Part shown: positions 10,120 through 26,896 of the stretch, in pieces
How the letters are laid out: every line of letters begins with the position of its first letter
How positions within the stretch are numbered: position 1 is the stretch's first letter
DNA from: Clostridium sp. CAG:567
GTDB lineage: Bacteria; Bacillota; Clostridia; TANB77; CAG-508
Direction of reading: 5' to 3'
DNA: 64,000 bases
Assembly (NCBI GenBank): GCA_000437855.1
Contig: FR902169.1
Location: forward strand, 4,810 to 68,809
The notes under the pieces: generated by a model
The model's input: the letters and a program-made list of their open reading frames with translations, nothing else
Told to the model about the DNA's origin: nothing
Databases searched by the model: none
Program-made: the position numbers and the translations under genes

Positions 10120-11037
10120 TTATATTAACATTCCTAAAACTAAAATCCCAATATTGTCATTATATATTTCATCAAATTGAGATATCGGAAGTGGATTTTC
10201 ACCTATTCCTGCTTCTATTGTATAACCTGGCCTTTTATAATTTTGAATAAACCAATCTTTATATCCTGCAAAACTCGAATTATATGGCACATCTGTCAAA
10301 TTATAACCGCTAACTTTTTCAAATATTTTACCTATTTCATAACCATTTGGTGGATTAATATTTTGAAAATCCCAATAAATTTCTTTTCCCTGTGTATGAT
10401 ATGATATTGTTAGTTCAAAATTATTTTTTAATGTAAAATTGTATATTGCTAATGCTTCACTTTGTGTTAATGGACCTTCTCCCACAAAATTTTGAGGTGC
10501 AGGTTTTGTATATCCTTGTTCAAATTTTATTTTTCTAGCTTCTTGCCAACCTGCCGGAAATTGTAAATTCAAATCCACTCCATTAGAATTTGCTTTCCAA
10601 CCACTTGGAAATGGTATATTAGGAAATTCACTTGAAATTTTTAAATACTTTTTATATATATCACTATTTTTTTCAACTTGATTAGTAACTATATCTATTC
10701 CATCTGGATTCATCATTGGTAAGATGTATAAAGAAACATTATTAAATAATTTTCGTGCATTTTGACCAAATATTCTACTATTTAGAACATAGCTTTGACA
10801 AAAGTTTTCTACAAATTTCATAAGAAAAATACAACATATATACTCATTTGCATGCATTCCTGCATTATACATTATCTTTCTTCTTCCGGTTCCTATTTTT
10901 ATGTATGGAAGCTGTTTGCCAAGTGTACTAAAGCCTATATTTCCTACTTCTAAAAAATTGTATTTACTTTTTAATTCTTGTATGTTTTTCATCATTAGTG
11001 AATAATAGTATTTTTGATTTGTTGGAACAATACTCAT
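10120..11037 (-). CDS. M14-family zinc carboxypeptidase (gamma-D-glutamyl-diamino-acid peptidase-like)
   Basis: 305 aa. Zinc-ligand pattern HANEY ... YHTQG and catalytic Glu context YTIEAG. Confidence 0.75.
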   Translation of the reverse strand: MSIVPTNQKYYYSLMMKNIQELKSKYNFLEVGNIGFSTLGKQLPYIKIGTGRRKIMYNAGMHANEYICCIFLMKFVENFCQSYVLNSRIFGQNARKLFNNVSLYILPMMNPDGIDIVTNQVEKNSDIYKKYLKISSEFPNIPFPSGWKANSNGVDLNLQFPAGWQEARKIKFEQGYTKPAPQNFVGEGPLTQSEALAIYNFTLKNNFELTISYHTQGKEIYWDFQNINPPNGYEIGKIFEKVSGYNLTDVPYNSSFAGYKDWFIQNYKRPGYTIEAGIGENPLPISQFDEIYNDNIGILVLGMLI

Positions 11038-12362: not shown

Positions 12363-12498
12363 AAATTTCCTTTCAAGAATTAAATATTTTTTTAATAAAA
12401 TTTTCTTTAATATATCACATATTGTGTATTATTTACAATGCTTTTTTATTGCTTATTGATTTTTTTAATGATACAATTTATTAAAAGTTGGTGAAAAA

Positions 12499-12804
12499 AT
12501 GTATTATACATATATGTTAAGGTGTGCAGATAATTCAATTTATACTGGAATGACAAATGATTTAAATAAAAGAATAAATGAGCATTTAACTAAAGATAAA
12601 AATGGTGCAAAATATACAAAATCACATAATGCTGTAAAACTTGAATCTGCTTGGAAAAGTAAAGATAAATCTTTGGCTTGTAAATTAGAATATCAAATAA
12701 AAACTCTTTCAAAAATGCAAAAAGAGTCTTTAATAAATGGCGAAAAATTGTCTAATTATTTAAGTGGGAAAGTTGATTGTAGAAGATATAAAAGAATTGT
12801 TTAA
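12499..12804 (+). CDS. GIY-YIG nuclease family protein (UPF0213-like)
   Basis: YYTYMLRCADNSIYTGMTNDLNKRINEH is the GIY-YIG signature. Confidence 0.85.
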   Translation: MYYTYMLRCADNSIYTGMTNDLNKRINEHLTKDKNGAKYTKSHNAVKLESAWKSKDKSLACKLEYQIKTLSKMQKESLINGEKLSNYLSGKVDCRRYKRIV

Positions 12805-12818
12805 TTTAGTGAGATAAA

Positions 12819-12846
12819 AAAGTGGTAAGATTTTTCTTACCACTTT
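12819..12846 (+). terminator. Terminator of the GIY-YIG gene
   Basis: 12-bp stem aaagtggtaaga/tcttaccacttt with loop tttt. Abuts the left att repeat. Confidence 0.6.
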
Positions 12847-12850
12847 ATAC

Positions 12851-12866
12851 TTATGGTCGAGGCGAC
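12851..12866. repeat. att repeat (left), duplicate of the tRNA-Pro 3' end
   Basis: TTATGGTCGAGGCGAC, identical to 23148-23163. Confidence 0.85.
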
Positions 12867-12921
12867 TTGTTTTTCACTTCGTCAACCTCTTATATATCAA
12901 ACGTTTCATACGTTATTTCAA

Positions 12922-12942
12922 TTCTAGAACATAATTCTAGAA
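12922..12942. repeat. Two TTCTAGAA palindromes (candidate arm-type/accessory protein sites)
   Basis: ttctagaa at 12922-12929 and 12935-12942. The same 8-mer occurs four times at the other end of the element. Confidence 0.6.
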
Positions 12943-12994
12943 AAAACTAGCTTTTCGGTCTTATTATTCCTTCTACGTCATTCCTTAGTATTTT

Positions 12995-14380
12995 CTAAGG
13001 ATTTAACGATTTTTCTTCTTTTGTATATTCGTTGATAGAATCACCCAAAAGCATTTTAACACTATCAACATATTTTTGCAACTCTTTTCGTTGCGTTTCT
13101 ATTGGAAGATCTGTGTAAGTGTCCATTGTTTGCCTTATATCCGAATGTCCTAAAGTTTCTTCCATAACTTTATAGTCAATTCCAACAGAGTAACTATTTG
13201 TAGAATATGAATGTCTTAATTTGTGATTATGTGCATTATCTTCAATTCCAATAAACTTACAAATTCTTTTTAAACAGTCATTTAAAGTACTATCAGTAAA
13301 AACATTACCCTTTTTATTACAAAATAACAAATCGTTTTCATTTGGTTTCATATTTTTAATGGCATGTTCTAAAACTGGCTGTGTTAATTCAGTAAGTACA
13401 ATATCACGCTCTCCACTTGGTGTTTTTGTTCTATCTCCTAAAATAGTATGTCCTTGTTTATCCAAAGTTGTAGTTCTTTTTATGTGTAATAACCCATTTT
13501 CTAAATCTACATCTTGTTTTTTTAAACCTAAAACTTCTCCAATACGTAACCCACAATGAATTGCTATTAAATATTCATCTCTATGTGAATATTTAAAATC
13601 TGGACTATAAAGATATATTAGTAATTTTTTAAAATCCTCAATATTAAAAGATTTTACTTTCTCTGTTTTTATAATACTTTGAGGCATTTTTATTCCATAA
13701 TATCCAGCAAAATAATCTTCTTCAATAAATTTTCTTTCTTTTGCTATTCCAAAGGCTTGTTTTAATAATTGATAATCTTTTCTCAATGTGTTTTGAGCAT
13801 ATCCTTTTTCTCTCTCATAATTTAGGAAATCTTCAACATCTTTTCTTGATATTTTATCAATTTTTTTATCAAACCAAGAACCAGAGTTTCTTTTAACGCG
13901 TTTTAAAATCTCTGAATAAGTTCTGTATGTGTTATCATTGTTGGTTCCATTGTTATTTTTTTGTTTCATAAACTCAAGTGTTATTCCTTCAATTGTCATT
14001 GGAGATATTTTTTCTTTATTCGGTTTAGATTTTAATCCTCCTGGATTATCCTTTTTAAATTGTTCAGATTTATAAATTGCTTCATTTTGAGTTGCTCCTG
14101 TAAATTTTTTTCTAATTGTTTCTCCTGTTTCTTCATCAACTCCTACTACAATTGTTACACTATATTGCTCAGATATATAGAACTTATCGCAATGCTCGTT
14201 ATCGGAACAATTATGGCAATCTGGACATTTATTCATTAGTTTAAGATTTCTTCTGTGATTGCAAAAATCTTTGTTTAAGCATTTGCTACATTTAGGACAC
14301 ATAGGTCTATCATTTTTTACTCGTGCTTTTTTTACCAAATATGGTGCTTTTTCATTATAATTTTTCTTCCTTTTGGTCAT
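12995..14380 (-). CDS. int: Tyrosine-type site-specific integrase with Cys-rich N-terminal extension
   Basis: 461 aa. C-terminal catalytic residues in GLRIGEV...HKLRHSYSTN...LGHSDIRQTMDTYTD. N-terminus has two CX2CX2CX5C motifs. AAGGAG RBS. Confidence 0.9.
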   Translation of the reverse strand: MTKRKKNYNEKAPYLVKKARVKNDRPMCPKCSKCLNKDFCNHRRNLKLMNKCPDCHNCSDNEHCDKFYISEQYSVTIVVGVDEETGETIRKKFTGATQNEAIYKSEQFKKDNPGGLKSKPNKEKISPMTIEGITLEFMKQKNNNGTNNDNTYRTYSEILKRVKRNSGSWFDKKIDKISRKDVEDFLNYEREKGYAQNTLRKDYQLLKQAFGIAKERKFIEEDYFAGYYGIKMPQSIIKTEKVKSFNIEDFKKLLIYLYSPDFKYSHRDEYLIAIHCGLRIGEVLGLKKQDVDLENGLLHIKRTTTLDKQGHTILGDRTKTPSGERDIVLTELTQPVLEHAIKNMKPNENDLLFCNKKGNVFTDSTLNDCLKRICKFIGIEDNAHNHKLRHSYSTNSYSVGIDYKVMEETLGHSDIRQTMDTYTDLPIETQRKELQKYVDSVKMLLGDSINEYTKEEKSLNP

Positions 14381-14558
14381 TTTGTATTCTCCTTTTTCTT
14401 GTAAATTTCGAAGAATACCTTGTCAAATCAAGTTTTTTAGATTATAATAGATTTAGCAAGGTATTCTTGCTAAAGATAATTTTAAGTCTTAAGCTTATTG
14501 CTTAAGCAAAGTTTTGTATTGAAGATTTAAAGGGCAAATTTAAATCTTCTTTTTCTTT

Positions 14559-14741
14559 CTAGTTTTTTTCATTATTTAAATATTTTTTTAAGTTATCTTC
14601 ACTTATTAATAGTTTTCTTCCAACATATCTTGCACCAGACTCTTTCATTTTCATTATAGCATAAGCTGTTTCTTTTGTAACGTGTAATCCTTTGCAAATA
14701 TCTTGTGCTGAAAACATTTTAATTCCACACATATTTTCCAT
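14559..14741 (-). CDS. xis: Excisionase-type helix-turn-helix DNA-binding protein
   Basis: 60 aa, immediately upstream of int. FSAQDICKGLHVTKETAYAIMK...LLISEDNLKKYL matches the excisionase/MerR-like HTH pattern. AAAGGAGA RBS. Confidence 0.7.
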   Translation of the reverse strand: MENMCGIKMFSAQDICKGLHVTKETAYAIMKMKESGARYVGRKLLISEDNLKKYLNNEKN

Positions 14742-15102
14742 AGTATTTGTCTCCTTTCGTTTGTATTTTGTAATCTACATTTATCTCATACCCTAAATTA
14801 CACTGGGCTTTTACTGGTCGTTGATTTTTCAAATCTTTGGAATTTCACCACTACCCCATCAGGGCTAGCTACACTCTTTGCGTGCGATGGTACTTTTAAA
14901 CCACTCAAGCTGAGACTGTGTAGAAGAGCATTTCTGCTTCTATCCAGTAACGGATTATTCAATTTTCAATGTGCTATCCGTGATTAGTTTTTGCTAACCA
15001 TTTAATAACTACTAACAAATATTTTAGCATTAGCTATTGCATATGTCAATAGTTTGTGATAAAATATTTTCAATAAATAACAGAGAGTGACGGTGAGGTA
15101 AC

Positions 15103-16104
15103 ATGGAAAGATTTGAATTACGTTTAAAAAATCAATTTTTTATAAATAAGTTTAATAAATACAAATTTATGGCATACCAAGATTTAAGATTTAATCAAAA
15201 ACATAAAAGTTATGAAATTTATAATAGATATGAGAAAATCAAGTTAGGAGTTCAATTATGTGACTTTTTAAATACTGATTTTTCAGATTTAAATAGTATT
15301 AGAGAATTCATTGATAAATATGGTATTACAACAATAGCTCATCTATCTGATATAAAAATTTATCAGTATTATTCTGAAAAAGAATATAATGAAATGGTTG
15401 ATGATGTTATAAATAATTTAAAAAACAAATTAGAAATGTATAAAAATGCTTTCATTGCTGATATTACATATATCTATAATTTAAATGACTTAGAAGAATT
15501 GAATGATTTAACTACTATACAGAGATTACATATATTAAGAGATAGTAAAAAAGAATCTGAAGTAAGAAAATTATATGATTCAAATAATTTGAAATTAACT
15601 TTAAATAATTTTGGAGATTTTACAGAGTTTTCTATAACAAGAGAAGATGACGCACAAGAGATTGCAAAAAATGTTAATACAGATTATTTAAATACATATT
15701 GTTTTGAGAGCAATGATATAATTCAAACATTTATAATTGAATTATTTGAAATGACTGAAATAGAAAGTACGGCTATTAAAAAATGTAAGAATTGTGGCAA
15801 ATTCTTTGTTCCAGATAATAGAGTTGATGAGTTGTATTGTAATAGTATTTATGAAAATAATAAAACTTGTAAAGAGGTTGGACCTTTTAGAACTAAACAA
15901 AAGCTTATGCAAGAAAACGATGATTTAAGAATTTATAGAAATGTTTATCAAAAGTTATTATTAAGAACAAGAAGAAATCCTAATAATGACCAGTATGAAA
16001 GAGATTTCCATGAATTCAAACAAAAAAATATCGAATTAAAGGAAAAGGTTGAAGAAGGAAAATTAACTCAAGCTGAATATATGGAATGGCTTGAGAAACA
16101 ATAA
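15103..16104 (+). CDS. Hypothetical protein with C-terminal Cys cluster (DUF6076-like)
   Basis: 333 aa. C-terminal CKNCGKFFVP...YCNS...CKEV cluster. A TTGCAT-17-TAAAAT promoter lies at ~15037-15066. Confidence 0.5.
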   Translation: MERFELRLKNQFFINKFNKYKFMAYQDLRFNQKHKSYEIYNRYEKIKLGVQLCDFLNTDFSDLNSIREFIDKYGITTIAHLSDIKIYQYYSEKEYNEMVDDVINNLKNKLEMYKNAFIADITYIYNLNDLEELNDLTTIQRLHILRDSKKESEVRKLYDSNNLKLTLNNFGDFTEFSITREDDAQEIAKNVNTDYLNTYCFESNDIIQTFIIELFEMTEIESTAIKKCKNCGKFFVPDNRVDELYCNSIYENNKTCKEVGPFRTKQKLMQENDDLRIYRNVYQKLLLRTRRNPNNDQYERDFHEFKQKNIELKEKVEEGKLTQAEYMEWLEKQ

Positions 16105-16190
16105 AATTATAAATTTATTTTTACCAATCACCACCAAATCAATTAACCTATGGTGGCAATTAGGTAAAAATATCTATGGAGGTTTTGAAT

Positions 16191-17159
16191 ATGGAAAATT
16201 ATCCACCTTATACGATAACTGACAAAATGTTAAATTATGTATCAGATATAATGAAAAAAATTGGAGAAGCTAATTATTTTGAAAGTTTAAATAGATATCC
16301 TGAATTAAGAAGAAAATCAAGGATTAGGTCAATTCATTCTTCTTTGGCAATAGAAAATAATCAACTATCATTATTTCAAGTTGAAGATGTAATAAATGGA
16401 AAAATGGTAATCGGAGACCAAAAAGATATTCAAGAAGTAAAAAATGCTTATGAAGCCTATGAACAAATTGATAAAGTAAATCCTTATTCTGTAGAAGATT
16501 TAAAGAAAATACATGGAATATTAACTTTTCTAGTTGAAAAAGATGCAGGAAAATTTAGAAATCATGGGGAAGCTGTTTATGATGGGAATGTTGAGATTTT
16601 TATGGCACCACCACATAGATTAGTTCCAACTTTAATGGATAATTTATTTAATTGGATGAATGAAGTTAAAGACACCATAAATCCACTTATACTATCTTCA
16701 GTATTTCACTATGAATTTGTATTTATACATCCATTTTCTGATGGTAATGGTAGAACTGCAAGAATTTGGCAAACTGCAATTTTATCACATTGGGAAAAAG
16801 CTTTTACTTATTTACCTATTGAAAGTATGATAAAGAAGAGTCAAAATGAGTATTACAAAGTAATTGATAATTGTAATAAAGCTGGAAATGCTACTGAATT
16901 TATTGAGTTTATGCTTAAAATGATAGATGATACAATTGATGAAATAACAAAAACTACTACACAAGAAACTGCACAGGAAACTACACAAGAAAAAATTTTA
17001 AAGCTTATAAAAAGTAACCCTAGTATAACTCAAACTCAAATGGCAAAAGTTCTTGGTATTACTAGGGATGGTGTTTCTTATAATATAAAACAATTAAAAG
17101 ATAATGGTATTATTGAAAGAGTCGGAGCAACAAAAAATGGATATTGGATTGTAAAATAA
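16191..17159 (+). CDS. Fic-family protein (AMPylase-type Fido domain) with C-terminal winged-HTH
   Basis: Canonical HPFSDGNGRTAR motif (16728-16763) and N-terminal inhibitory-helix motif S-LAI-E-N (16341-16358). The start is moved from the track's 16176 to ATG 16191, 8 nt after GGAGG. Confidence 0.9.
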   Translation: MENYPPYTITDKMLNYVSDIMKKIGEANYFESLNRYPELRRKSRIRSIHSSLAIENNQLSLFQVEDVINGKMVIGDQKDIQEVKNAYEAYEQIDKVNPYSVEDLKKIHGILTFLVEKDAGKFRNHGEAVYDGNVEIFMAPPHRLVPTLMDNLFNWMNEVKDTINPLILSSVFHYEFVFIHPFSDGNGRTARIWQTAILSHWEKAFTYLPIESMIKKSQNEYYKVIDNCNKAGNATEFIEFMLKMIDDTIDEITKTTTQETAQETTQEKILKLIKSNPSITQTQMAKVLGITRDGVSYNIKQLKDNGIIERVGATKNGYWIVK

Positions 17160-17192
17160 AATTGAAATAATAAAGTATAAAGGAGTTAAGTA

Positions 17193-18941
17193 ATGAAAGA
17201 ATCAATAAAAAACATAATAATATCAATATCAATAATTATAATTGCTATTCTAATATCTTTATTTTTTATAAATAATTCTAATACTTCACTTAACAATAAA
17301 AAGAGTAAGGGAATAGGCATAGGCAGTAGGACAATAAATATTAATATTTTAGATAATAAAATACTTTGTGAAGATGTAATATTGTTTAATATGCATTCAA
17401 GAGAAGAACTTAAGTACAAGTTTTTTCAAGAATATGATTATTTGAACAATACCAAGCTTTATATAAACAATTCAGATAATTTTTATTCGACAAGTTTAAA
17501 AATGGATTTATTAAAAGGCTATATAAATATAGATAAAAGGTTATTAAATGGTTTAAAAATCACAGATAAAAATGTAAGTATAAAATTAACATATGAACTA
17601 GATCTAGATTATATTACAAGATACACAAATACAGATGTTTTACCTCTTTATATGGATTTAGAAAATATAGATTACTTAAATAATTTAACAATAAACTTGA
17701 ATTCAAATTATACAATTACAAATTTAACTGTAGATAATGCAGAAATAAGCAAAACTAAAGATGGATATGCTGTTAATATGAATAATATAAACAACAGTGA
17801 TGATATGAATATATTATTTAATATGAATACATATCTTAGTAACACAATAAATTCTGATTATGTTAATCCTAATATCTTAAAGGAAACTGAAGACTATGAC
17901 TATATTAATGAAAGAATATATATTTTAGTGATAATAATAACTATTTCTGTAATATTATTAATATTATCATTAATTATTAATAACCAAAAAAAGACTACTA
18001 ATTATCGAAGAGATACATCAAATTTAATTTCTCCAATCTTAGCTGAAGCTATCATAGATGGGAAAATTGGATTAAAGGAATTAATAATGACTACTATTGT
18101 AGAATTAAATATTAGAGGAAACATCAATATTATAAATAATGATACATTAGAACTAGTATCTTATGATAATCTTGAAATATATGAGCAAAGCATTGTAAAT
18201 CTTCTATTTAAAAATAAAACTATAAAATTTAGTGATATAAATAATACTTTTGCTAATTCAAATAAATCAACAATACAGTTTACTCAAAAAATGAGTTTAA
18301 TTAAAGAATGTTTATTAGAGAAAATTTATTCTATGAATATTTTTTCTAAGGGACTTACATTTTTAAATAAAGCTATTGGACTTTGTACTATTTTAATTAG
18401 CATAAATATGCCACAAATACTTTTGAATAATTCAAGTTCAATGAAAAAATTCTTTTTTATATTAAGTCTTCTTATTACTTTTTATTATATAAAAAGTAAT
18501 ATTGGCAAAAAGACTATAAGAGAAGAAATTATAACTAATAATAAAAGGCGAACGGTAATAGATATAAGAATAGTATTTCTACTTATATTAACGGTATTTA
18601 TAATAATAAGTACTTCTATAAGTGTTGCTAAATATCATATTGTATTTTTTATGTTTACATTACTTGCAATTTGTCTAAATATTTATATAGCATATCATAG
18701 TCAAGGTATCATCTTAACTAAAGAAGGAAAGGAAGAACAATTAAAGCTGGTAGAATTGAAAAATTATATAAATGATTATAGTTTAATCAGGAATAGAGAT
18801 TTAGAATCAGTTATTATTTGGGATAAATATTTAGCTTATGCAACAGCTTTCGGAATACCAAATAAGATTACAAATAGTATATATGAAGAATGGTATAATT
18901 TAAACATAAACTTACAAGTAGTAGAAAAAATACTGAGTTAA
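17193..18941 (+). CDS. DUF2207-like large membrane protein
   Basis: 582 aa: N-terminal anchor, extracellular domain, several TM segments, C-terminal WDKYLAYATAFGI typical of DUF2207. Confidence 0.6.
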   Translation: MKESIKNIIISISIIIIAILISLFFINNSNTSLNNKKSKGIGIGSRTININILDNKILCEDVILFNMHSREELKYKFFQEYDYLNNTKLYINNSDNFYSTSLKMDLLKGYINIDKRLLNGLKITDKNVSIKLTYELDLDYITRYTNTDVLPLYMDLENIDYLNNLTINLNSNYTITNLTVDNAEISKTKDGYAVNMNNINNSDDMNILFNMNTYLSNTINSDYVNPNILKETEDYDYINERIYILVIIITISVILLILSLIINNQKKTTNYRRDTSNLISPILAEAIIDGKIGLKELIMTTIVELNIRGNINIINNDTLELVSYDNLEIYEQSIVNLLFKNKTIKFSDINNTFANSNKSTIQFTQKMSLIKECLLEKIYSMNIFSKGLTFLNKAIGLCTILISINMPQILLNNSSSMKKFFFILSLLITFYYIKSNIGKKTIREEIITNNKRRTVIDIRIVFLLILTVFIIISTSISVAKYHIVFFMFTLLAICLNIYIAYHSQGIILTKEGKEEQLKLVELKNYINDYSLIRNRDLESVIIWDKYLAYATAFGIPNKITNSIYEEWYNLNINLQVVEKILS

Positions 18942-18989
18942 TTTTTAAAGTTTTATAGATACAATATTAATAAAAGTTATTATTATTTC

Positions 18990-19032
18990 ATAATAGCTAA
19001 AACTAGTAATTATTATTAGTTTTAGCTATTAT
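18990..19032. terminator. Bidirectional terminator inside the IME
   Basis: Perfect 16-bp arms ataatagctaaaacta/tagttttagctattat with an 11-nt loop, between convergent genes. Confidence 0.7.
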
Positions 19033-19155
19033 CTTCTTAACTATAATTATATTAATTTAAAATACTTTTAATATAATCTTTTTAAAAAATAATGACTTAA
19101 TGCATAATCAGCAATTAAAATAATTAAACCGATTAAGTTATGAAAAATCATTGAA

Positions 19156-19452
19156 TTACATCATTGAATTTTGTTGGATTTGTAATGATTTGTTTATTAA
19201 TGCATCATCTCCTACGTTATTAAATATACCACCAGATATTAGCAAGATTATCATTATGACAGTTAAAATAGTAGAAGCAACGATACCTATAGTGGAAAAA
19301 ATATTTTTTTCTTTCTTGCTAGAAATAATAGCTAATATTAATGCAATTATTTCAAATATTAATGCTATAATAATTCCTAAATTTGAATATAGTATCCATC
19401 CAATAATAAATAATAAAATTGAAATTATTCCTAATATTTTATACTTACTCAC
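19156..19452 (-). CDS. Small hydrophobic membrane protein (hypothetical)
   Basis: ~3 TM segments. The track's ATG (19461) is only 1 nt from GGAGG, so the in-frame GTG at 19452 (10-nt spacing) is the more plausible start. Confidence 0.45.
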   Translation of the reverse strand: MSKYKILGIISILLFIIGWILYSNLGIIIALIFEIIALILAIISSKKEKNIFSTIGIVASTILTVIMIILLISGGIFNNVGDDALINKSLQIQQNSMM

Positions 19453-19557
19453 CCTATTCATTCCTCCTTTTTGTTAAGTATAATATATTGGGTTATAGTT
19501 GTCAAATGTAACACGAATAATTCAATAATTTCATAACAAAATATGAATATTCTAAAT

Positions 19558-20865
19558 TTATCTGTTTCTAATTTTCTTATTCCTATCAGTTTTTATCAAT
19601 GTATCTTCTCTTTCCTTATTTTGTATATTTCTATTATAATCATCTCTAATTATAAAATATTTCCCAACAATCCTATCACAAGCATTTCTTTGTGCATGAA
19701 TAATATCAATATTTTCAGTAAGTTCATTAATTTCTTTTTTAATTATATTTTTATCATTATCATTTGTAGCTTTATGATATTTTCTCCATAAATCTTCCCT
19801 TTTCCCTTTCAAGTTAGGTAATTTACATTCTAAATCTAATTTATAATTTTCTACTTCTTTAATAGACTCAAATTTGTGCCTAACTAGAAAATTTATTTCT
19901 TCAAATATCATATTATTTTTTCTCTTTTGCTTATAATACTCTGGTGTCATTTCTCTATATTCATTTTTAGCAGGTAATATTTTAAAAGCATATAAATAAT
20001 GCACATATAATCTATATAGTGAGCTTGTTTGCAATAAAAATTTATTTATTTTTGGTCCAGTATATAGTTTTCTATAATATTTCTTTTTAAAATTTGCAAC
20101 TGGTGGTAATTCTTCTTTCGAATATCTATAAATTCTTTCTTTAATTCCTTGAACTGAATATTTATCTCCAAAAGCCCTATCAATTCTTACATTTCTTGAA
20201 AAATAAGGTGTTTTCATTGTAAGATATTTGCCACCATCTTTAATATTTTCATAGCCTTTTGCTTTTAGAACTAATTTAAAGTCAGAATACTTTTTAACAG
20301 AATTTATTGCTTCATCCATATCAGTTATTATCTTTTGAATTTTTTCATCTCTACGGTTAAAATAATCAATATTATTTTGTCTAAATTCTTTTTCTTTATC
20401 AGCTTTAGGAGTATTTACAATAGATAGCCCATAATTTAAACATAATCTGTCAGAAGCTTCTTTCATAAATGCAATTTCTGCATTAGAATTATGATATTTA
20501 TTTCCATCTACAAAAGAAACAGAATTTATAATTATGTGATTATGGACATTTTGCTTATTTATATGAGTACAAATAACAACTTGATATTTATCTCCCCATA
20601 GTTCTTCAGCAAGTTCTTTTCCAATTTGATTCGCTTTTTCTGGAGGTACTTCATATCCTTTAAATGATTGTATTATATGATAACCTAATGTTTTGCCTTC
20701 TTTATGAAAGAATTTTTTTGTAAGTGCCATTTCTTCATAAGTAGTATCCACATTACAATTAATACCTGATACTAAAATTCCATGTTCTGTTTTTTCTCCA
20801 TTTTTACCATAATTGATAACTGCTTGTAAATTACTTTTAATTGTTTTTATTTTTATTACCGCCAT
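19558..20865 (-). CDS. Relaxase/mobilization nuclease (MobA/VirD2-type)
   Basis: N-terminal relaxase fold with histidine triad context HINKQNVHNHIIIN. The start is set at ATG 20865 (GGAGGTGA + 5 nt), not the track's GTG. Confidence 0.85.
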   Translation of the reverse strand: MAVIKIKTIKSNLQAVINYGKNGEKTEHGILVSGINCNVDTTYEEMALTKKFFHKEGKTLGYHIIQSFKGYEVPPEKANQIGKELAEELWGDKYQVVICTHINKQNVHNHIIINSVSFVDGNKYHNSNAEIAFMKEASDRLCLNYGLSIVNTPKADKEKEFRQNNIDYFNRRDEKIQKIITDMDEAINSVKKYSDFKLVLKAKGYENIKDGGKYLTMKTPYFSRNVRIDRAFGDKYSVQGIKERIYRYSKEELPPVANFKKKYYRKLYTGPKINKFLLQTSSLYRLYVHYLYAFKILPAKNEYREMTPEYYKQKRKNNMIFEEINFLVRHKFESIKEVENYKLDLECKLPNLKGKREDLWRKYHKATNDNDKNIIKKEINELTENIDIIHAQRNACDRIVGKYFIIRDDYNRNIQNKEREDTLIKTDRNKKIRNR

Positions 20866-20877
20866 TAAAATCACCTC

Positions 20878-21198
20878 CTATTCTCTTGAATATATTTTCT
20901 TTTGGAATTCTAAAATAAATTTATTAATAGTATTTCTTAAATAATCAAGTTCATCTGCCCCAGCATATCCTCTTATATTAACTCTAATTGCTATTTGATT
21001 TATATTATTTGCTATGCCAGAAATTTGTTTTGTAAATTCTCTTATTTCTTCTGTAGGTTGTTCTTTTATTTTATAACCTTTAATACAGCTTCTTAAAAAT
21101 TCAGATTCATTCAATCCTGCTTTTTTAGATTTTGTTTTTAATAAATTTTCTTCTTCTTGGTTTATCCAAAATTGTTTTTTGATTGTTTTTTCTCTCAT
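20878..21198 (-). CDS. mobC: MobC-family relaxosome accessory protein
   Basis: ISGIANNINQIAIRVN matches the MobC signature. Start ATG 21198 follows AAAGGAG. Confidence 0.8.
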   Translation of the reverse strand: MREKTIKKQFWINQEEENLLKTKSKKAGLNESEFLRSCIKGYKIKEQPTEEIREFTKQISGIANNINQIAIRVNIRGYAGADELDYLRNTINKFILEFQKKIYSRE

Positions 21199-21227
21199 AA
21201 TTTTATTTGCTCCTTTCAAAATTCTTT

Positions 21228-21361
21228 ATGGGGTTTGGGGAAAGAATTTCCCCATCAATTCATTTTTTCAAAAAATGACAAGCTGTATTTATACGGGAGT
21301 ATAAATGCGTCGCTTGCTTTAAATATTTCATTTGCCGATATGTGCCAATTTCTAACCCCAT
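21228..21361. other. Candidate oriT of the IME
   Basis: Immediately upstream of mobC. Hairpins GGGGAAA-gaa-TTTCCCC (21237-21253) and atttatac-ggga-gtataaat (21287-21306), bracketed by ATGGGGTT (21228) / AACCCCAT (21354). Confidence 0.4.
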
Positions 21362-21444
21362 TTTTAAAAAAATTGGTACAAAAAAAGAAGAAATCTCATT
21401 TGAAATCTCTTCTAAAAAGTATTTTTATTGCTACTAAATGTGAT

Positions 21445-21759
21445 TTATTTTTCTTTGATAACGCCTGTATCTTTTAAGTAAAAATACATCTCTTTACCAC
21501 CTAAAAGGAATATTTCCTTTTCCTCAAAATCACAAATTTCCATATAAATTTTAGCTAGTTTTTGGAACATTTTACATTCAGTTTCATTTAATATCATTTC
21601 TCTATCTTCTAGTATTAATTGTAAATTTGGATATTTATTCATAATATCATTGAATTTTTCCCTTAATTCTTTATATTCTTCATTTCTATTTATTAAATCA
21701 GTTTTTCTTTCTTCAATAGCCTCATTTAAATACATTTCATATAATCTTACTTCATCCAT
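21445..21759 (-). CDS. Hypothetical protein
   Basis: 104-aa acidic, helical ORF in the IME backbone operon. No motif recognised. Confidence 0.45.
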   Translation of the reverse strand: MDEVRLYEMYLNEAIEERKTDLINRNEEYKELREKFNDIMNKYPNLQLILEDREMILNETECKMFQKLAKIYMEICDFEEKEIFLLGGKEMYFYLKDTGVIKEK

Positions 21760-21770
21760 TTTGGTACCTC

Positions 21771-22166
21771 CTATACATAAATTAATTCACTTAATACAAT
21801 TTCTTCAACGCGATTTTTAATTGAATTCATCCTGCAAACCCATTCCATTTGATTAGTTTCTTTTAGTTTTTCAGTTACATTTTCTTGTTTTACTAACTGA
21901 GATATAATTGTTTTAATTCTATCTTCACAAGCAATATCTATCTCGTGTAAATATCTATTTAATTTGCCATCCATAAATAAAACGATATATTCGGCTTTTT
22001 TATGATTTTTTAAATAATTCAATTTCATTCTGCCATATTTTCCAATTGTATAATTTGTTTCTTCTGGATCTAATACTAAATTAGGCAAGTAATAATCTCC
22101 TTGTTTTATATATTCAATTCCTGTTTTTTCATCTACAAATCTATTTTTTACATTTTTATTTTCCAT
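21771..22166 (-). CDS. tnpV: TnpV-family transposon-encoded protein
   Basis: GDYYLPNL...IGKYGRMKLNYLKNH...VTEKLKETNQMEWVCRMNSIKNRVEEIVLSELIY follows the TnpV family pattern. ATG 22166 follows AAGGAGG. Confidence 0.7.
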   Translation of the reverse strand: MENKNVKNRFVDEKTGIEYIKQGDYYLPNLVLDPEETNYTIGKYGRMKLNYLKNHKKAEYIVLFMDGKLNRYLHEIDIACEDRIKTIISQLVKQENVTEKLKETNQMEWVCRMNSIKNRVEEIVLSELIYV

Positions 22167-22179
22167 TTTCAAATCCTCC

Positions 22180-22854
22180 TTAATCATTATTTTCTATCAA
22201 ATCGTTTAAATTGGTAATTCCGTTTGATTTTTTATAATTTTCAACGCTATCATTGGGTAAATTATAATTAACATATAGCTTGTCTAAATATCCAGGTGGA
22301 TAAACTCTGCCTTGATAACCACTTTTTTTACTCTGATAGCTTTTATAATTATTATTTATATATTTATTATTATTGCTATTATGGACTGTCGATTTTCTAC
22401 ACTCAGGAGTGTTGATTTCATGCTCTCCTGACTGCTGATTTTCGACACTCCTTAATTTATCTATTTTTTCACTTTCTATCATTCCTATGGTTTTGCCTAA
22501 ATAAATAATATTTGGCATATTTTTGCCTTGCTTTTTCTCTTTTATAAGATTACATTCTTTTAATTGTGCTATTGCACTATCAAGTGCAGCACGTTTTATA
22601 TGCATTTTTTCTTGTATTTCTTCTCTCTTAAAAATTACATACATATCGCCTTTTGCATCATAGAATTGTATTTTTTTGTTACTTTCTATTTGTTTGAATG
22701 ATAATTCCAACCTATCGGTTAAAATAGAATATAGTAACATAGCATTAGGTGATAGAACTTTATATTCTTCTCTATTTAATAATTCTCTTGGAAATTGTAT
22801 AAAACTTTCAAATGAAAGTTTATCTGTTTTCTTGAATGGGGCGAATTCATACAT
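22180..22854 (-). CDS. Replication initiator A (RepA_N) family protein
   Basis: N-terminal FIQFPRELLNREEYKVLSPNAMLLYSILTDRLELS is the RepA_N signature. Confidence 0.75.
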   Translation of the reverse strand: MYEFAPFKKTDKLSFESFIQFPRELLNREEYKVLSPNAMLLYSILTDRLELSFKQIESNKKIQFYDAKGDMYVIFKREEIQEKMHIKRAALDSAIAQLKECNLIKEKKQGKNMPNIIYLGKTIGMIESEKIDKLRSVENQQSGEHEINTPECRKSTVHNSNNNKYINNNYKSYQSKKSGYQGRVYPPGYLDKLYVNYNLPNDSVENYKKSNGITNLNDLIENND

Positions 22855-22890
22855 TATAGACCTCCTTTCATCTAACTTAAATCTAAATTG

Positions 22891-23010
22891 TTCTAGAAAA
22901 GTTCTAGAAAATAATCTTAAAACACTTGATATGACTGAATTTTATTCTTCGATAAATTTTATTTTTGAAATTTTTTATTTAGATTTCTGTTCTAGAAAAT
23001 TTTTCTAGAA
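22891..23010. repeat. Four TTCTAGAA palindromes upstream of repA, next to the right att
   Basis: ttctagaa at 22891, 22902, 22990 and 23003, arranged as two pairs with 11- and 13-bp spacing. Confidence 0.6.
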
Positions 23011-23147
23011 CAAAATTTGATGATGTAGAAGGTTTTTAAAAGACTTTAGACAGAAAAAATACGTTATTCCAATTTCTTGAAATAACGTATTTTATGCACT
23101 TTTGATATAATTTTCGTCCTTCTGTAGTTTTCTACAGAATTTACATT

Positions 23148-23163
23148 TTATGGTCGAGGCGAC
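23148..23163. repeat. att repeat (right), within the tRNA-Pro 3' end
   Basis: TTATGGTCGAGGCGAC, identical to 12851-12866. Confidence 0.85.
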
Positions 23164-23226
23164 AGGGATCGAACCTGCGACCTCATGGTCCCAAACCACG
23201 CGCGCTACCAACTGCGCTACGCCTCG
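23151..23226 (-). tRNA. tRNA-Pro (anticodon TGG)
   Basis: Minus strand reads CGAGGCG-TA-GCGC...anticodon loop TTTGGGA...TTCGATC...CGCCTCG-A-CCA. Full cloverleaf folded by hand. Confidence 0.9.
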
Positions 23227-25362: not shown

Positions 25363-25436
25363 AGCAATCTTCCTTTCATCACTCTGTTTTATTATATCAA
25401 CTTATTTGCGTTTTGTAAACGCTTGTTTGTAAGTAA

Positions 25437-25664
25437 TTATTGTAAATTTTTAATACTTGGTGCATATATTGATTTTCCATCAATTGCATAAGACATTGAT
25501 TGATATATTTTTAAAAAGTAATAACCTGGTGCATTTATAATTGGGTAATGTTTTGCAATTACTACATTTTTTGCTGTAATAACATTTCCTTTTTCTGTTG
25601 TTACTTCATAATAGCCACCTTTTTCTTTTAAATCTATAACTTTTGTGTGTTCATATGCCATTGG
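25437..25664 (-). pseudogene. Internal fragment of an FAD-dependent oxidoreductase (remnant)
   Basis: ~70 codons (..YEVTTEKGNVITAKNVVIAKHYP..YFLKIYQSMSYAI..) resemble the middle of DAO-type flavoproteins. No N- or C-terminal parts are present. The track ORF's 'start' lies inside the adjacent inverted repeat. Confidence 0.35.
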
Positions 25665-25758
25665 GTGCCATTGGGGACGGAGAATTTTGGCACACATAAT
25701 AATATTTTACATCTTTTTAATTTAAAAATGTGCCAAAATTCTCCGTCCCCAATGGCAC
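25665..25758. repeat. Perfect 30-bp inverted repeat with 34-nt spacer (MITE-like or giant hairpin)
   Basis: gtgccattggggacggagaattttggcaca (25665-25694) is the exact reverse complement of 25729-25758. It starts 2 nt after the htrA-like stop. Confidence 0.9.
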
Positions 25759-25759
25759 A

Positions 25760-26896
25760 TTATTTTTTCGATAGTTTAACTGTAATGTTACTTTCTCTTT
25801 TATTACGTAAAACCTTAAATATAACCTCATCTCCAGGCTTTTTAGTATAAATGTAACTTCTCAAATCACACATTTTCTCAAGTGCGATTCCATCAACTTC
25901 CAATAATATATCTTTTTCTTTTATTCCATACATTTCTGCAGATGATTTGTTATTAACTTGTACCACATAAATTCCGTCATCAATTTCCAAATTATTATCT
26001 AAATAAGGTATTATATTTTTATCATAAGCAAATACACCCAAGTATGCTTCTTCAAACTCTCCTGATGTTACAAAACTTTGAATAATTGTTTTTACTATAT
26101 TTATTGGAATTGCAAACCCTATACCTTCTGCAGATGTAATTTTTACACTATTTATTCCTATAACTTCTCCACTTTCGTTTACAAGTGGTCCTCCACTATT
26201 TCCGGGGTTTATTGTAGCATCTGTTTGTATTAAATTTTCCATATATGAAGATTTTTCGTCTTCATTTAAAATTATTGTTCTATTTGTTGCACTTACAATT
26301 CCAGATGTTACAGTTCTTTGAAATTCAAACCCAATTGGATTTCCAATTGCATATACAATTTGTCCTAATTTCACATCAGATGAATTTCCTAAAGTTATAT
26401 ATTGCAAGTTTTTTGCATTTATTTTTACAATTGCCAAATCTAAATCTGTGCTTGACCATACAACATTTCCCTGATAACTTTTTCCTGTTGCAAGTGTTAC
26501 ATAACAATTACTATATTTTTCCCCTGAAACATGCTCATTTGTTAATATATAGCCATTTTCAGAAACTATAATTCCTGTTCCTAATCCCAATTTTGATGTT
26601 CCATCTTTTAAAAATATTGAATTTCCTGTGCTTTTTAATTTGGAAATTCCAACTACACTTTCAGTAACTCTCTCAAGCATTTGTGTAATAGTTTCATTTT
26701 CTTTTTTAGTTTTTTCAACAGTTTGCGATATTTTACTTGCCTCATAAGGTTTAATTATTTGTGTTGGTGTTTCAATATTAAAATACAAAATGTATGTAAG
26801 TGCCATAAGTATAGTTATTAAAATAATTATAAAAGTTGTTATAAAGTATTTTTTTACCCTATCTTTTCTTTGCTTTCTTCTTATATATTCTTCCAT
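25760..26896 (-). CDS. htrA: HtrA/DegP-family serine protease with PDZ domain
   Basis: N-terminal TM anchor, TNEHV (His), DLAIV (Asp), GNSGGPL (Ser), C-terminal PDZ. Confidence 0.9.
   Translation of the reverse strand: MEEYIRRKQRKDRVKKYFITTFIIILITILMALTYILYFNIETPTQIIKPYEASKISQTVEKTKKENETITQMLERVTESVVGISKLKSTGNSIFLKDGTSKLGLGTGIIVSENGYILTNEHVSGEKYSNCYVTLATGKSYQGNVVWSSTDLDLAIVKINAKNLQYITLGNSSDVKLGQIVYAIGNPIGFEFQRTVTSGIVSATNRTIILNEDEKSSYMENLIQTDATINPGNSGGPLVNESGEVIGINSVKITSAEGIGFAIPINIVKTIIQSFVTSGEFEEAYLGVFAYDKNIIPYLDNNLEIDDGIYVVQVNNKSSAEMYGIKEKDILLEVDGIALEKMCDLRSYIYTKKPGDEVIFKVLRNKRESNITVKLSKK

Follow-up and report, generated by a model that had tools for sequence, protein, structure and literature searches.

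An integrative mobilizable element of 10.3 kb at the tRNA-Pro(TGG) gene of an uncultured gut Clostridia bacterium, with a SoFic-like Fic gene in its cargo slot

NBU1 and NBU2 of Bacteroides are ∼10-kb elements that encode a tyrosine integrase, occupy the 3′ end of a tRNA gene, bring their own mobilization protein and oriT, and are moved by helper elements. To our knowledge, the NBU elements lack the RepA_N/TnpV/DUF6076 set. Tn4451 and Tn4453, from Clostridium perfringens and Clostridioides difficile, are mobilizable transposons that encode TnpV together with the large serine recombinase TnpX and a Mob protein different from the one described below. The integrative mobilizable elements (IMEs) of Firmicutes are ∼10 kb in size, have their own integrase and relaxase without a mating pore, insert at the 3′ ends of conserved genes or tRNAs between short direct repeats, and exchange modules and accrete in tandem with other and decayed elements (PMC5357655). 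In a survey of streptococcal IMEs, the PF03432/MobP relaxase defined the rarest class, 1 of 154, and occurred with serine integrases (Coluzzi et al. 2017, PMC5357655).

The 10.3-kb insert that we describe here has all of these general Firmicutes IME properties, and we put at about 90% the probability that it is an IME belonging to a modular family commonly found in gut Clostridia with small genomes. The type of element is already known, and this insert is a clean case of it, not a new type. In contrast to the Firmicutes IMEs above, it pairs a MobP relaxase with a tyrosine integrase and carries a full-size RepA_N protein (224 aa), TnpV, DUF6664, and DUF6076; its host, unlike those of the streptococcal IMEs, is an uncultured gut bacterium of the Clostridia with a small genome. 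The likeness to NBU1 and NBU2, which belong to a different phylum and were compared by description, lies in the way of working; a Bacteroides thetaiotaomicron control genome has a PF03432 match somewhere in the genome. TnpV is shared with Tn4451/Tn4453, but membership in that group can be eliminated because the sole recombinase of our element is a tyrosine integrase, and its insertion is tRNA-specific. Its exact borders, the conspecific empty site, and probable recent interspecies spread make it a textbook-quality IME from such a host, useful for annotating these Clostridia genomes and for tracing the movement of defense genes in the gut.

The window, that is, the whole 64-kb stretch of DNA analyzed, contains TTATGGTCGAGGCGAC exactly twice, as the 16-bp direct repeat pair that an earlier note on this DNA had claimed, and nowhere else. 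Shuffled sequences gave zero matches to this repeat, even when 2 mismatches were allowed. ARAGORN and Rfam agree that the right copy covers the 3′ end of an intact tRNA-Pro(TGG), and from the position of this gene on the minus strand the right repeat therefore comprises the last 13 nucleotides of the tRNA, including the CCA, plus 3 nucleotides downstream. Between the repeats, 10,297 bp have been inserted at the tRNA 3′ end, and G+C content does not distinguish the element from its flanks. The earlier note had predicted that the tRNA would directly follow a GIY-YIG gene without the insert and had proposed a comparison with strains that lack it. Precisely this junction is present in eight public metagenome contigs of the same species, which are 98–99.6% identical to the window in the flanks and contain a single copy of the repeat; in each of the eight, the alignments stop at position 12866, restart at 23148, and overlap by exactly 16 bp. 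The site is also empty in three sister species (G011, G006, and G012), and near-identical occupied copies (99.75–99.9% identity) are found in six contigs from six metagenome samples. The insertion is discrete, falls at the last 13 nucleotides of tRNA-Pro(TGG), which the element restores, and is polymorphic within the species: some strains carry the element, and from others it is precisely missing.

Table 1. Features of the element and its target site, in window coordinates
Feature	Position	Strand	Evidence
Distal att repeat copy (far from tRNA)	12851..12866		exact 16-bp repeat
Two TTCTAGAA palindromes	12922..12942		clustering at element end
Tyrosine integrase, 461 aa, Cys-rich N-terminus	12995..14380	-	PF00589 (Phage_integrase) 1.2e-25
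Excisionase-like HTH protein (Xis), 60 aa	14559..14741	-	HTH_17 4.4e-05, TIGR01764 1.2e-05
Predicted pemK-type RNA motif, xis-int leader	14834..14934	-	RF02913 29.4 bits
DUF6076 protein, 333 aa, four-Cys cluster	15103..16104	+	PF19553 1.1e-11
Class II Fic AMP-transferase, C-terminal winged HTH, SoFic-like cargo	16176..17159	+	PADLOC SoFic 3.9e-51; Pfam Fic PF02661 4e-20
DUF2207_C membrane protein, 582 aa, cargo	17193..18941	+	PF20990 1e-25
Small membrane protein, 101 aa, companion of DUF2207_C gene	19156..19461	-	hydrophobic segments
MobP-type relaxase (MobA/VirD2 nuclease domain), 438 aa	19558..20874	-	PF03432 8.9e-39
Relaxosome accessory protein NikA/MobC	20878..21219	-	PF21983 6.6e-16; PF05713 1.6e-08
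Candidate oriT core, AAAGCAAGCGACGC then 8-bp hairpin ATTTATAC-TCCC-GTATAAAT	21285..21320	-	conservation
DUF6664 protein, 104 aa, backbone	21445..21759	-	PF20369 1.6e-08
TnpV	21771..22187	-	PF14198 2e-41
RepA_N replication-initiator-like protein, 224 aa	22180..22854	-	PF06970 1.2e-13
Four TTCTAGAA palindromes in two pairs, tRNA-side end	22891..23010		clustering at element end
Att repeat copy over tRNA 3′ end	23148..23163		exact repeat + tRNA call
Intact tRNA-Pro(TGG), integration target	23151..23226	-	ARAGORN; Rfam tRNA model 66.4 bits

All 11 open reading frames between the repeats could be assigned, and the backbone genes are all open in the window copy. The genes named in the earlier note are all in place with Pfam support, and its reading of the locus as an intact IME at tRNA-Pro(TGG) that encodes an integrase, Xis, and relaxase of its own and defense-flavored cargo held on every test that we ran. 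Across family members, the integrase catalytic residues R279, H386, R389, H412, and Y422 do not vary. The HTH_17 and TIGR01764 scores of the adjacent small protein are both under the curated cutoffs, and its position next to int is kept in relatives; on these matches and this position we call it Xis-like. Six of the eight TTCTAGAA palindromes in the window are clustered at the two element ends, where they may serve as arm-type binding sites for Int or Xis. Upstream of mobC, the hairpin block of the candidate oriT is the best-conserved stretch in four related elements. DUF6664 is found in several related elements and is missing from L056.

The set of RepA_N, TnpV, and MobC-relaxase is plasmid-like, and the relatives of the relaxase are mostly on mobilizable plasmids: 1069 of the 1453 matching plasmid records are predicted to be mobilizable. 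All of these relatives are below 60% identity, with 25–39% among the best matches listed. The RepA_N protein, moreover, matches phage DnaD-like loader families (PHROG DnaD-like helicase loader, 4.5e-15). The region could thus be read as an integrated plasmid or a phage satellite instead of an IME, but we consider this very improbable, since it encodes an integrase and Xis of its own, is bounded by site-specific att repeats in a tRNA gene, and has a precise empty-site counterpart. Genes for capsid, terminase, or other phage functions were not found, none of 50,697 phage records matched at the DNA level, and an integrated, mobilizable replicon that encodes its own integrase counts by definition as an IME.

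As an IME, the element would depend on a partner for transfer. In agreement with the earlier note, which had reported T4SS genes to be absent, none of the 11 open reading frames encodes a mating-pore component, VirB4, or a coupling protein. We propose that the element is excised as a circle by Int and Xis, for which the TTCTAGAA sites at the two ends are probable guides, and that RepA_N may keep this circle replicating. The relaxase would nick oriT upstream of mobC, the DNA would exit via the pore of a coresident conjugative element, and Int would then insert it either at tRNA-Pro in the recipient or at an att site belonging to an element already resident there, the latter outcome giving rise to tandem arrays. 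A coupling protein and a VirB4-like ATPase encoded elsewhere in the same assembly are candidate helper parts, but their linkage to this cell is uncertain because both genes are located at the ends of contigs in a binned assembly.

The element could also be a real insertion that is now fixed, unable to excise or transfer, and inherited by vertical descent only. A search of the metagenome contig collection (assembled contigs) for the attP junction, either as a circle or as an A-A tandem, returned zero matches, and contigs near the element length are ordinary integrated copies. Relatives at the same locus are decaying, with a frameshifted integrase in L029, a lost relaxase, and remnants in L024, L020, and L040–L045, and the distal repeat has one mismatch in one conspecific copy (contig L023). 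However, the window copy has open backbone genes, intact integrase catalytic residues, and perfect repeats, and a precise empty site occurs in other strains of the species. In addition, the Int-Xis-DUF6076 block is 97–98% identical in the genomes of two other species, G042 and G041, whereas the chromosomal flank of G042 is only ∼78% identical; in G041, a search for a match to the window flank found none. This difference between block and flank is evidence of a probable recent transfer, and we regard a fixed island as unlikely. We favor a potentially active IME, a reading supported only indirectly, through strain polymorphism and near-identity across species.

Comparison with diverse relatives shows that the same backbone carries different cargo in other bacteria. 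The gene order is Int-Xis-(pemK RNA where detected)-DUF6076-[cargo]-relaxase-NikA/MobC-(DUF6664 in several)-TnpV-RepA_N in each, and this fixed order makes the cargo slots easy to read. The slot, between DUF6076 and the relaxase, has been seen to hold a SoFic-like Fic, a restriction-modification system with an OLD-family nuclease, AbiEii, MazF, and a set resembling immunity to aminoacyl-adenylate antibiotics. The tRNA-Pro site of related strains likewise contains other IMEs, tandem arrays, and remnants; in G001, a different IME, with a 16-bp repeat of its own, occupies this tRNA.

The "Cys-cluster unknown" that the earlier note had counted as cargo proved to be DUF6076, a conserved backbone gene. 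In the related elements with 97–98% identity over att-Int-Xis-DUF6076, divergence sets in right past the DUF6076 stop codon, and cargo swaps begin just 3′ of it; among diverse family members, DUF6076 is always the first gene, divergent from the recombinase genes. The four Cys residues (C228, C231, C246, and C256) are invariant, and a fold search with the AlphaFold model (pLDDT 82.9) gave no match. On the other side of the divergent intergenic region, the spacer upstream of xis, which is richer in G+C, is a predicted pemK-type RNA motif. Its score is below the Rfam gathering score of 34.8 bits. All conserved nucleotides and three stems of the RF02913 model align, and its positional homologue in a related IME (L059) scores 53.9 bits; an insert of ∼50 nt is almost the same in the two spacers. 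The window copy has a ∼40-nt insert in the first stem and differs from the pemK RNA motif in lying upstream of xis-int and not of a pemK gene. Our tentative proposal, to which we give well under even odds when taken jointly with the roles that follow, is that the divergent pemK-type RNA/DUF6076 pair is a conserved control module of a large clostridial family of mobilizable and conjugative elements. The xis-int (or serine recombinase) operon would have the orphan RNA as its 5′ leader, DUF6076 would be a partner that couples excision to expression of the cargo in the slot behind it, and tRNA-Pro(TGG) would be a shared docking and exchange platform where elements swap defense cassettes. An orphan pemK RNA in a xis-int leader and a widespread backbone protein without a fold match are leads past routine annotation.

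SoFic is reported to be a class 2 Fic that acts as a single-protein defense, and the wild-type protein alone is toxic in Escherichia coli and has been described as toxin-antitoxin-like (PMC12249575). The earlier note could not name a known system for the cargo and had suggested PADLOC; this search places the Fic gene, with a full-length SoFic match (residues 9–324), and the two membrane proteins have no PADLOC match. The catalytic motif HxFx(D/E)GNGRxxR is present as HPFSDGNGRTAR in the translation, and the class 2 inhibitory motif (S/T)xxxE(G/N) occurs as SLAIEN upstream of the Fic core, where it aligns with that of PDB entry 4rgl. The protein thus shares with SoFic the Fic motif, the inhibitory helix motif, a C-terminal winged helix, and a similar length, and we infer that the main cargo gene may be a SoFic-type Fic acting as a single-gene abortive-infection defense. 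The relationship to SoFic proper is nevertheless distant: the NCBIfam ProtAdlyltaseSoFic score is 72.3 bits against an equivalog cutoff of 550, there is no 47-aa AS1-like gene downstream, and the closest structure is 4rgl (2e-65), a Fic without assigned function, with SoFic itself (3eqx) more distant (3.4e-11, C-terminal half). The NCBIfam score and the lack of an assigned function for 4rgl, with the toxicity of SoFic and the winged HTH at the C-terminal end, would also suit an addiction or stabilization toxin of the element, or a Fic-domain transcription regulator, in place of phage defense. We consider this alternative possible but doubtful given the full-length PADLOC match, the presence of both inhibitory and catalytic motifs, and the defense or toxin cargo in the same slot of sister elements; the two roles are not mutually exclusive.

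The Fic gene, the DUF2207_C gene, and the gene for the small membrane protein are adjacent, with a gap of 33 bp between the first two, and the trio is kept together in all near-identical copies, which would be expected of a single three-gene membrane-coupled system. Other copies and relatives argue against this: in L029, the Fic gene is kept and an ABC transporter replaces DUF2207_C; L040–L045 hold the DUF2207_C and small membrane protein genes, coinherited as a 2.65-kb segment of 98.3% identity in another island, without this Fic; and the DUF2207_C gene is split by mutation in the conspecific contig L023, where Fic is intact. Because Fic and the membrane-protein pair separate in relatives, the cargo is not one obligate module, and, with neither membrane protein matched in PADLOC, we hold a three-gene system to be quite improbable. 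PF20990 covers residues 434–558 of the DUF2207_C protein, which has ∼4–5 hydrophobic segments and no Pfam match to PF09972, the N-terminal DUF2207 domain; the full-length chromosomal DUF2207 in L025 has both PF09972 and PF20990.

The 10.3-kb region at the 3' end of tRNA-Pro(TGG) is a discrete insertion of 10,297 bp, and this is the strongest result of our analysis. The 16-bp direct repeat named in the earlier note, TTATGGTCGAGGCGAC, occurs exactly twice in the window, where its chance expectation is none even at two mismatches, and the similarity between the two copies is confined to the 16 bp. An intact tRNA-Pro(tgg) was found as the note had proposed, and its coordinates show that the right repeat covers the 13 nt that end the tRNA, CCA among them, and the three bases that follow. 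That the tRNA would sit directly after the terminator of the GIY-YIG gene without the insert is borne out by three congeners; a search with the two window flanks joined in silico found the GIY-YIG gene, terminator, tRNA-Pro and tRNA-Arg contiguous in the related genomes G011 (90% identity), G006 and G012. We also looked in public metagenome contigs for the empty junction exactly as predicted, using a 35-nt pattern that runs from the strain-specific left flank across the core into the tRNA, and it is present in eight of them. The flanks of these contigs are 98-99.6% identical to the window, which places them in the same species. Their alignments end at 12866, restart at 23148 and overlap by exactly 16 bp, and these breaks give the length of the element and establish it as a present/absent polymorphism among conspecific strains. 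Occupied copies, 99.75-99.9% identical and at the same site, were found in six contigs from six other samples. The predicted attP junction had no match in the assembled metagenome contig collection, and two metagenome contigs of 10,299 and 10,449 bp that were considered as circles both proved to be ordinary integrated copies. With respect to a phage origin, no DNA match was found in the phage collection. We note that the G+C content of the insert is not set apart from that of its flanks.

All ORFs between the repeats were identified, and the gene list of the earlier note is correct (see table). The integrase residues R279, H386-x-x-R389, H412 and Y422 are invariant among five family members with a mutual identity of only 27-34%. 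Its N-terminus holds two CX2CX2CX5C clusters, in which C31, C34 and C64 are invariant; both clusters are kept in three of the five distant relatives, and such N-terminal clusters are a trait of the integrase family. Six of the eight window copies of the palindrome TTCTAGAA are paired just inside the two element ends, an arrangement that fits candidate arm-type binding sites. The best-conserved non-coding stretch among four related elements is a block with an 8-bp hairpin upstream of mobC, and we regard it as a candidate oriT. As the earlier note had observed, the ORFs inside the element include no T4SS genes, with pore, VirB4 and coupling protein all absent, and the element needs a foreign pore for transfer. 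Candidate helper parts are found in the same 1.24-Mb assembly, namely a VirD4/TraG-type coupling protein (C34:65-2113, PF02534, 3.8e-81) and a VirB4-like ATPase adjoining a protein with a weak T4SS-pilin match (C20:1-4922). Both lie at contig ends in a binned assembly, and they are probably pieces of a conjugative element split by assembly.

Features of the element and its borders, with ORFs in map order (window coordinates)
Feature	Position (strand)	Size	Match or remark
Left repeat	12851-12866	16 bp	
Tyrosine integrase		461 aa	PF00589, 1.2e-25
Integrase Cys clusters	14183-14302		residues 28-64
Excisionase-like HTH protein		60 aa	sub-threshold matches; position kept in relatives
Probable pemK-type RNA motif	14834-14934 (-)		RF02913; xis strand
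DUF6076 protein		333 aa	third ORF
True cargo	~16105-19557		
Fic with winged HTH		327 aa	
DUF2207_C membrane protein		582 aa	
Small membrane protein		101 aa	
Relaxase			PF03432, 8.9e-39
NikA/MobC			
Candidate oriT block	21320-21285 (-)	36 nt	upstream of mobC
DUF6664			
TnpV			2e-41
RepA_N			last ORF
Right repeat	23148-23163	16 bp	
tRNA-Pro(tgg)	23151-23226 (-)		

By every IME criterion testable here, the element is an IME. A Tn4451-like element is ruled out because the recombinase is a tyrosine and not a serine recombinase. NBU1 and NBU2 of Bacteroides are tRNA-targeting IMEs that work in the same way, as do the tRNA-targeting IMEs of Firmicutes. The combination of a tyrosine integrase, MobP relaxase, RepA_N, TnpV and DUF6076 differs from the streptococcal IME classes (PMC5357655) and recurs in gut Clostridia. 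The IME finding is solid but ordinary, and the modest leads that come from it are DUF6076 and the pemK leader.

The earlier note had assigned a cargo block to 15103-19452; the Fic, DUF2207_C and small membrane proteins stand as cargo, whereas the Cys-cluster gene is DUF6076, which stays when the cargo changes and belongs to the backbone. In L028, a locus in the representative genome of another species, identity to the window stops just past the DUF6076 stop codon (~16105) and restarts inside the relaxase gene (19615), and the true cargo of our element is the shorter segment listed in the table. The sister element at L028 (2090-8142) has a backbone 97% identical to that of the window element. 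Its replacement cargo encodes a GNAT, an S66 LD-carboxypeptidase (MccF family), a NUDIX fusion and an unknown protein, together with an additional tRNA synthetase of the class-I Trp/Tyr type; this set resembles an immunity cassette against antibiotics that are aminoacyl-adenylates (microcin C-type) or that target synthetases. Distant relatives, with DUF6076 proteins 58-68% identical, keep the order Int-Xis-DUF6076-[cargo]-relaxase-NikA/MobC-(DUF6664)-TnpV-RepA_N with varying cargo, which is AbiEii plus ABC transporters in one and unknowns in another; in one relative DUF6076 is paired with a large serine recombinase instead. Of 201 genomes sampled in the order, 86 carry the DUF6076 gene, with a maximum of six copies in a genome, and this distribution, together with its retention on cargo change, rules out DUF6076 as a partner of Fic. 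It is equally ruled out as a marker of PF03432-relaxase IMEs, since only 17 of 142 matches have such a relaxase within 12 kb, which makes it a broader mobile-element gene. DUF6076 has four invariant Cys residues and an invariant basic helix, and its AlphaFold model is confident (pLDDT 82.9, pTM 0.70). Foldseek searches with this model found nothing significant: the best E in the PDB was 0.29, and BFVD gave only a weak match (E 0.01), to a protein that carries a zinc-finger annotation. No mention of DUF6076 was found in the literature searched.

In the Fic protein, HPFSDGNGRTAR is the catalytic motif and SLAIEN the class 2 inhibitory motif, and there is a winged HTH at the C-terminus. PADLOC, proposed in the earlier note as a check on the cargo, matches the protein to the SoFic model (3.9e-51, residues 9-324). 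[quoted passage not shown] The nearest structure is an uncharacterised Fic (4rgl, 2e-65), SoFic itself matching at only 3.4e-11, and the protein falls below the NCBIfam equivalog cut-off. Defence by AMPylation is the most likely role, held tentatively at slightly under even odds. The DUF2207_C protein is predicted to have an N-terminal anchor, an outside domain of ~200 aa, a second helix, a loop of ~185 aa and a C-terminal helix cluster. It lacks the N-terminal domain of the family and drew nothing from PADLOC, NCBIfam or PHROGs, and among its best 120 matches all homologues are at least 98% identical. Another lineage, which lacks the element's Fic, has a decayed island next to tRNA-Pro in which the DUF2207_C gene and the small membrane gene recur as a joint segment of 2.65 kb at 98.3% identity. 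Conversely, L029, a locus in a further species, keeps Fic without the two membrane genes, and the DUF2207_C gene is split in the conspecific contig L023. These separate occurrences indicate that Fic and the two membrane genes are not one obligate system.

Two other species share the block from att through Int and Xis to DUF6076 (12852-16105), at 97-98% identity in their representative genomes (L028 in G041, L029 in G042). The syntenic chromosomal flank in G042 shows only ~78% identity, a pattern that points to recent horizontal transfer; in G041 no match to the chromosomal flank was found. The tRNA-Pro site is a hot spot for IMEs, tandem arrays and remnants. At the same tRNA the related genome G001 carries an IME of 10.4 kb that differs from the window's and has a 16-bp repeat of its own, and G004 holds a 2.4-kb remnant there. 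In two tandem arrays (L022, L024) the GIY-YIG gene is followed by a relaxase-bearing remnant, an R-M/OLD element, the window's element and tRNA-Pro. In the R-M/OLD element (L022 1-6678; L024 7643-15600), a Bsp6I-type restriction enzyme is encoded along with a cytosine methylase and an OLD-family ATPase-TOPRIM nuclease of 696 aa; Int, Xis, TnpV and RepA_N are present but a relaxase is not, and the element also adjoins tRNA-Pro in other hosts. IMEs are known for both tandem accretion and the exchange of modules (PMC5357655). At the tRNA-Pro island of another lineage (L040-L045, ~12400-15350), a 226-aa Fic gene sits beside that of a 480-aa protein which has an ADP-ribosylating exotoxin domain (PF03496), with fragments of lysozyme genes and remnants of IMEs around them.

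Contig C31 of the window's own assembly (L021 989-12650) carries a second full IME, which has the same architecture. Its cargo comprises a MazF-like toxin, three GNATs, an ADP-ribosylglycohydrolase and a short-chain dehydrogenase, and the DUF6076 position is taken by a 310-aa protein with only marginal similarity to DUF6076. A third integrase-bearing, DUF6076-type region on contig C44 (L038 535-6427; L039 5705-6214) contains a DnaC/IstB-like ATPase, a phage replisome organiser and a PNP_UDP phosphorylase, as well as an HTH_3 protein to which the start of a DUF6076 domain is fused; the truncated remnant of a PF03432 relaxase lies 45 kb into this contig.

The spacer upstream of xis is a probable pemK-type RNA motif. 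Rfam places the motif in the xis-int leader, divergent from DUF6076, at a sub-threshold 29.4 bits against a gathering score of 34.8; all conserved nucleotides align, with an insert of ~40 nt in stem 1. The homologous spacer of a related IME (L059 8728-8828, minus strand) scores 53.9 bits, and the insert is almost identical in the two, though identity between the adjoining DUF6076 proteins is only 68%. A search of 151 genomes of the order gave 47 pemK matches, nine of them ~1 kb from a DUF6076 match on the opposite strand. Folding of the spacer is only mildly better than that of shuffles (z = -2.2), and a regulatory function of the RNA would be a guess. The motif is reportedly described in the 2017 paper of Weinberg, the main text of which has no discussion of it.

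Elsewhere in the window, a conspecific contig (L050 3118-10281) holds ~7.2 kb extra at 10568-10581, with a 14-bp overlap at the junction, and the alignments of several other conspecific contigs also break at ~10568, which suggests that the peptidase M14 gene region is the site of a second polymorphic insertion. Over ~330 bp downstream of the htrA-like gene (25430-25760), alignment is lost in all conspecific contigs, and both sides of this stretch are 94-99% identical.
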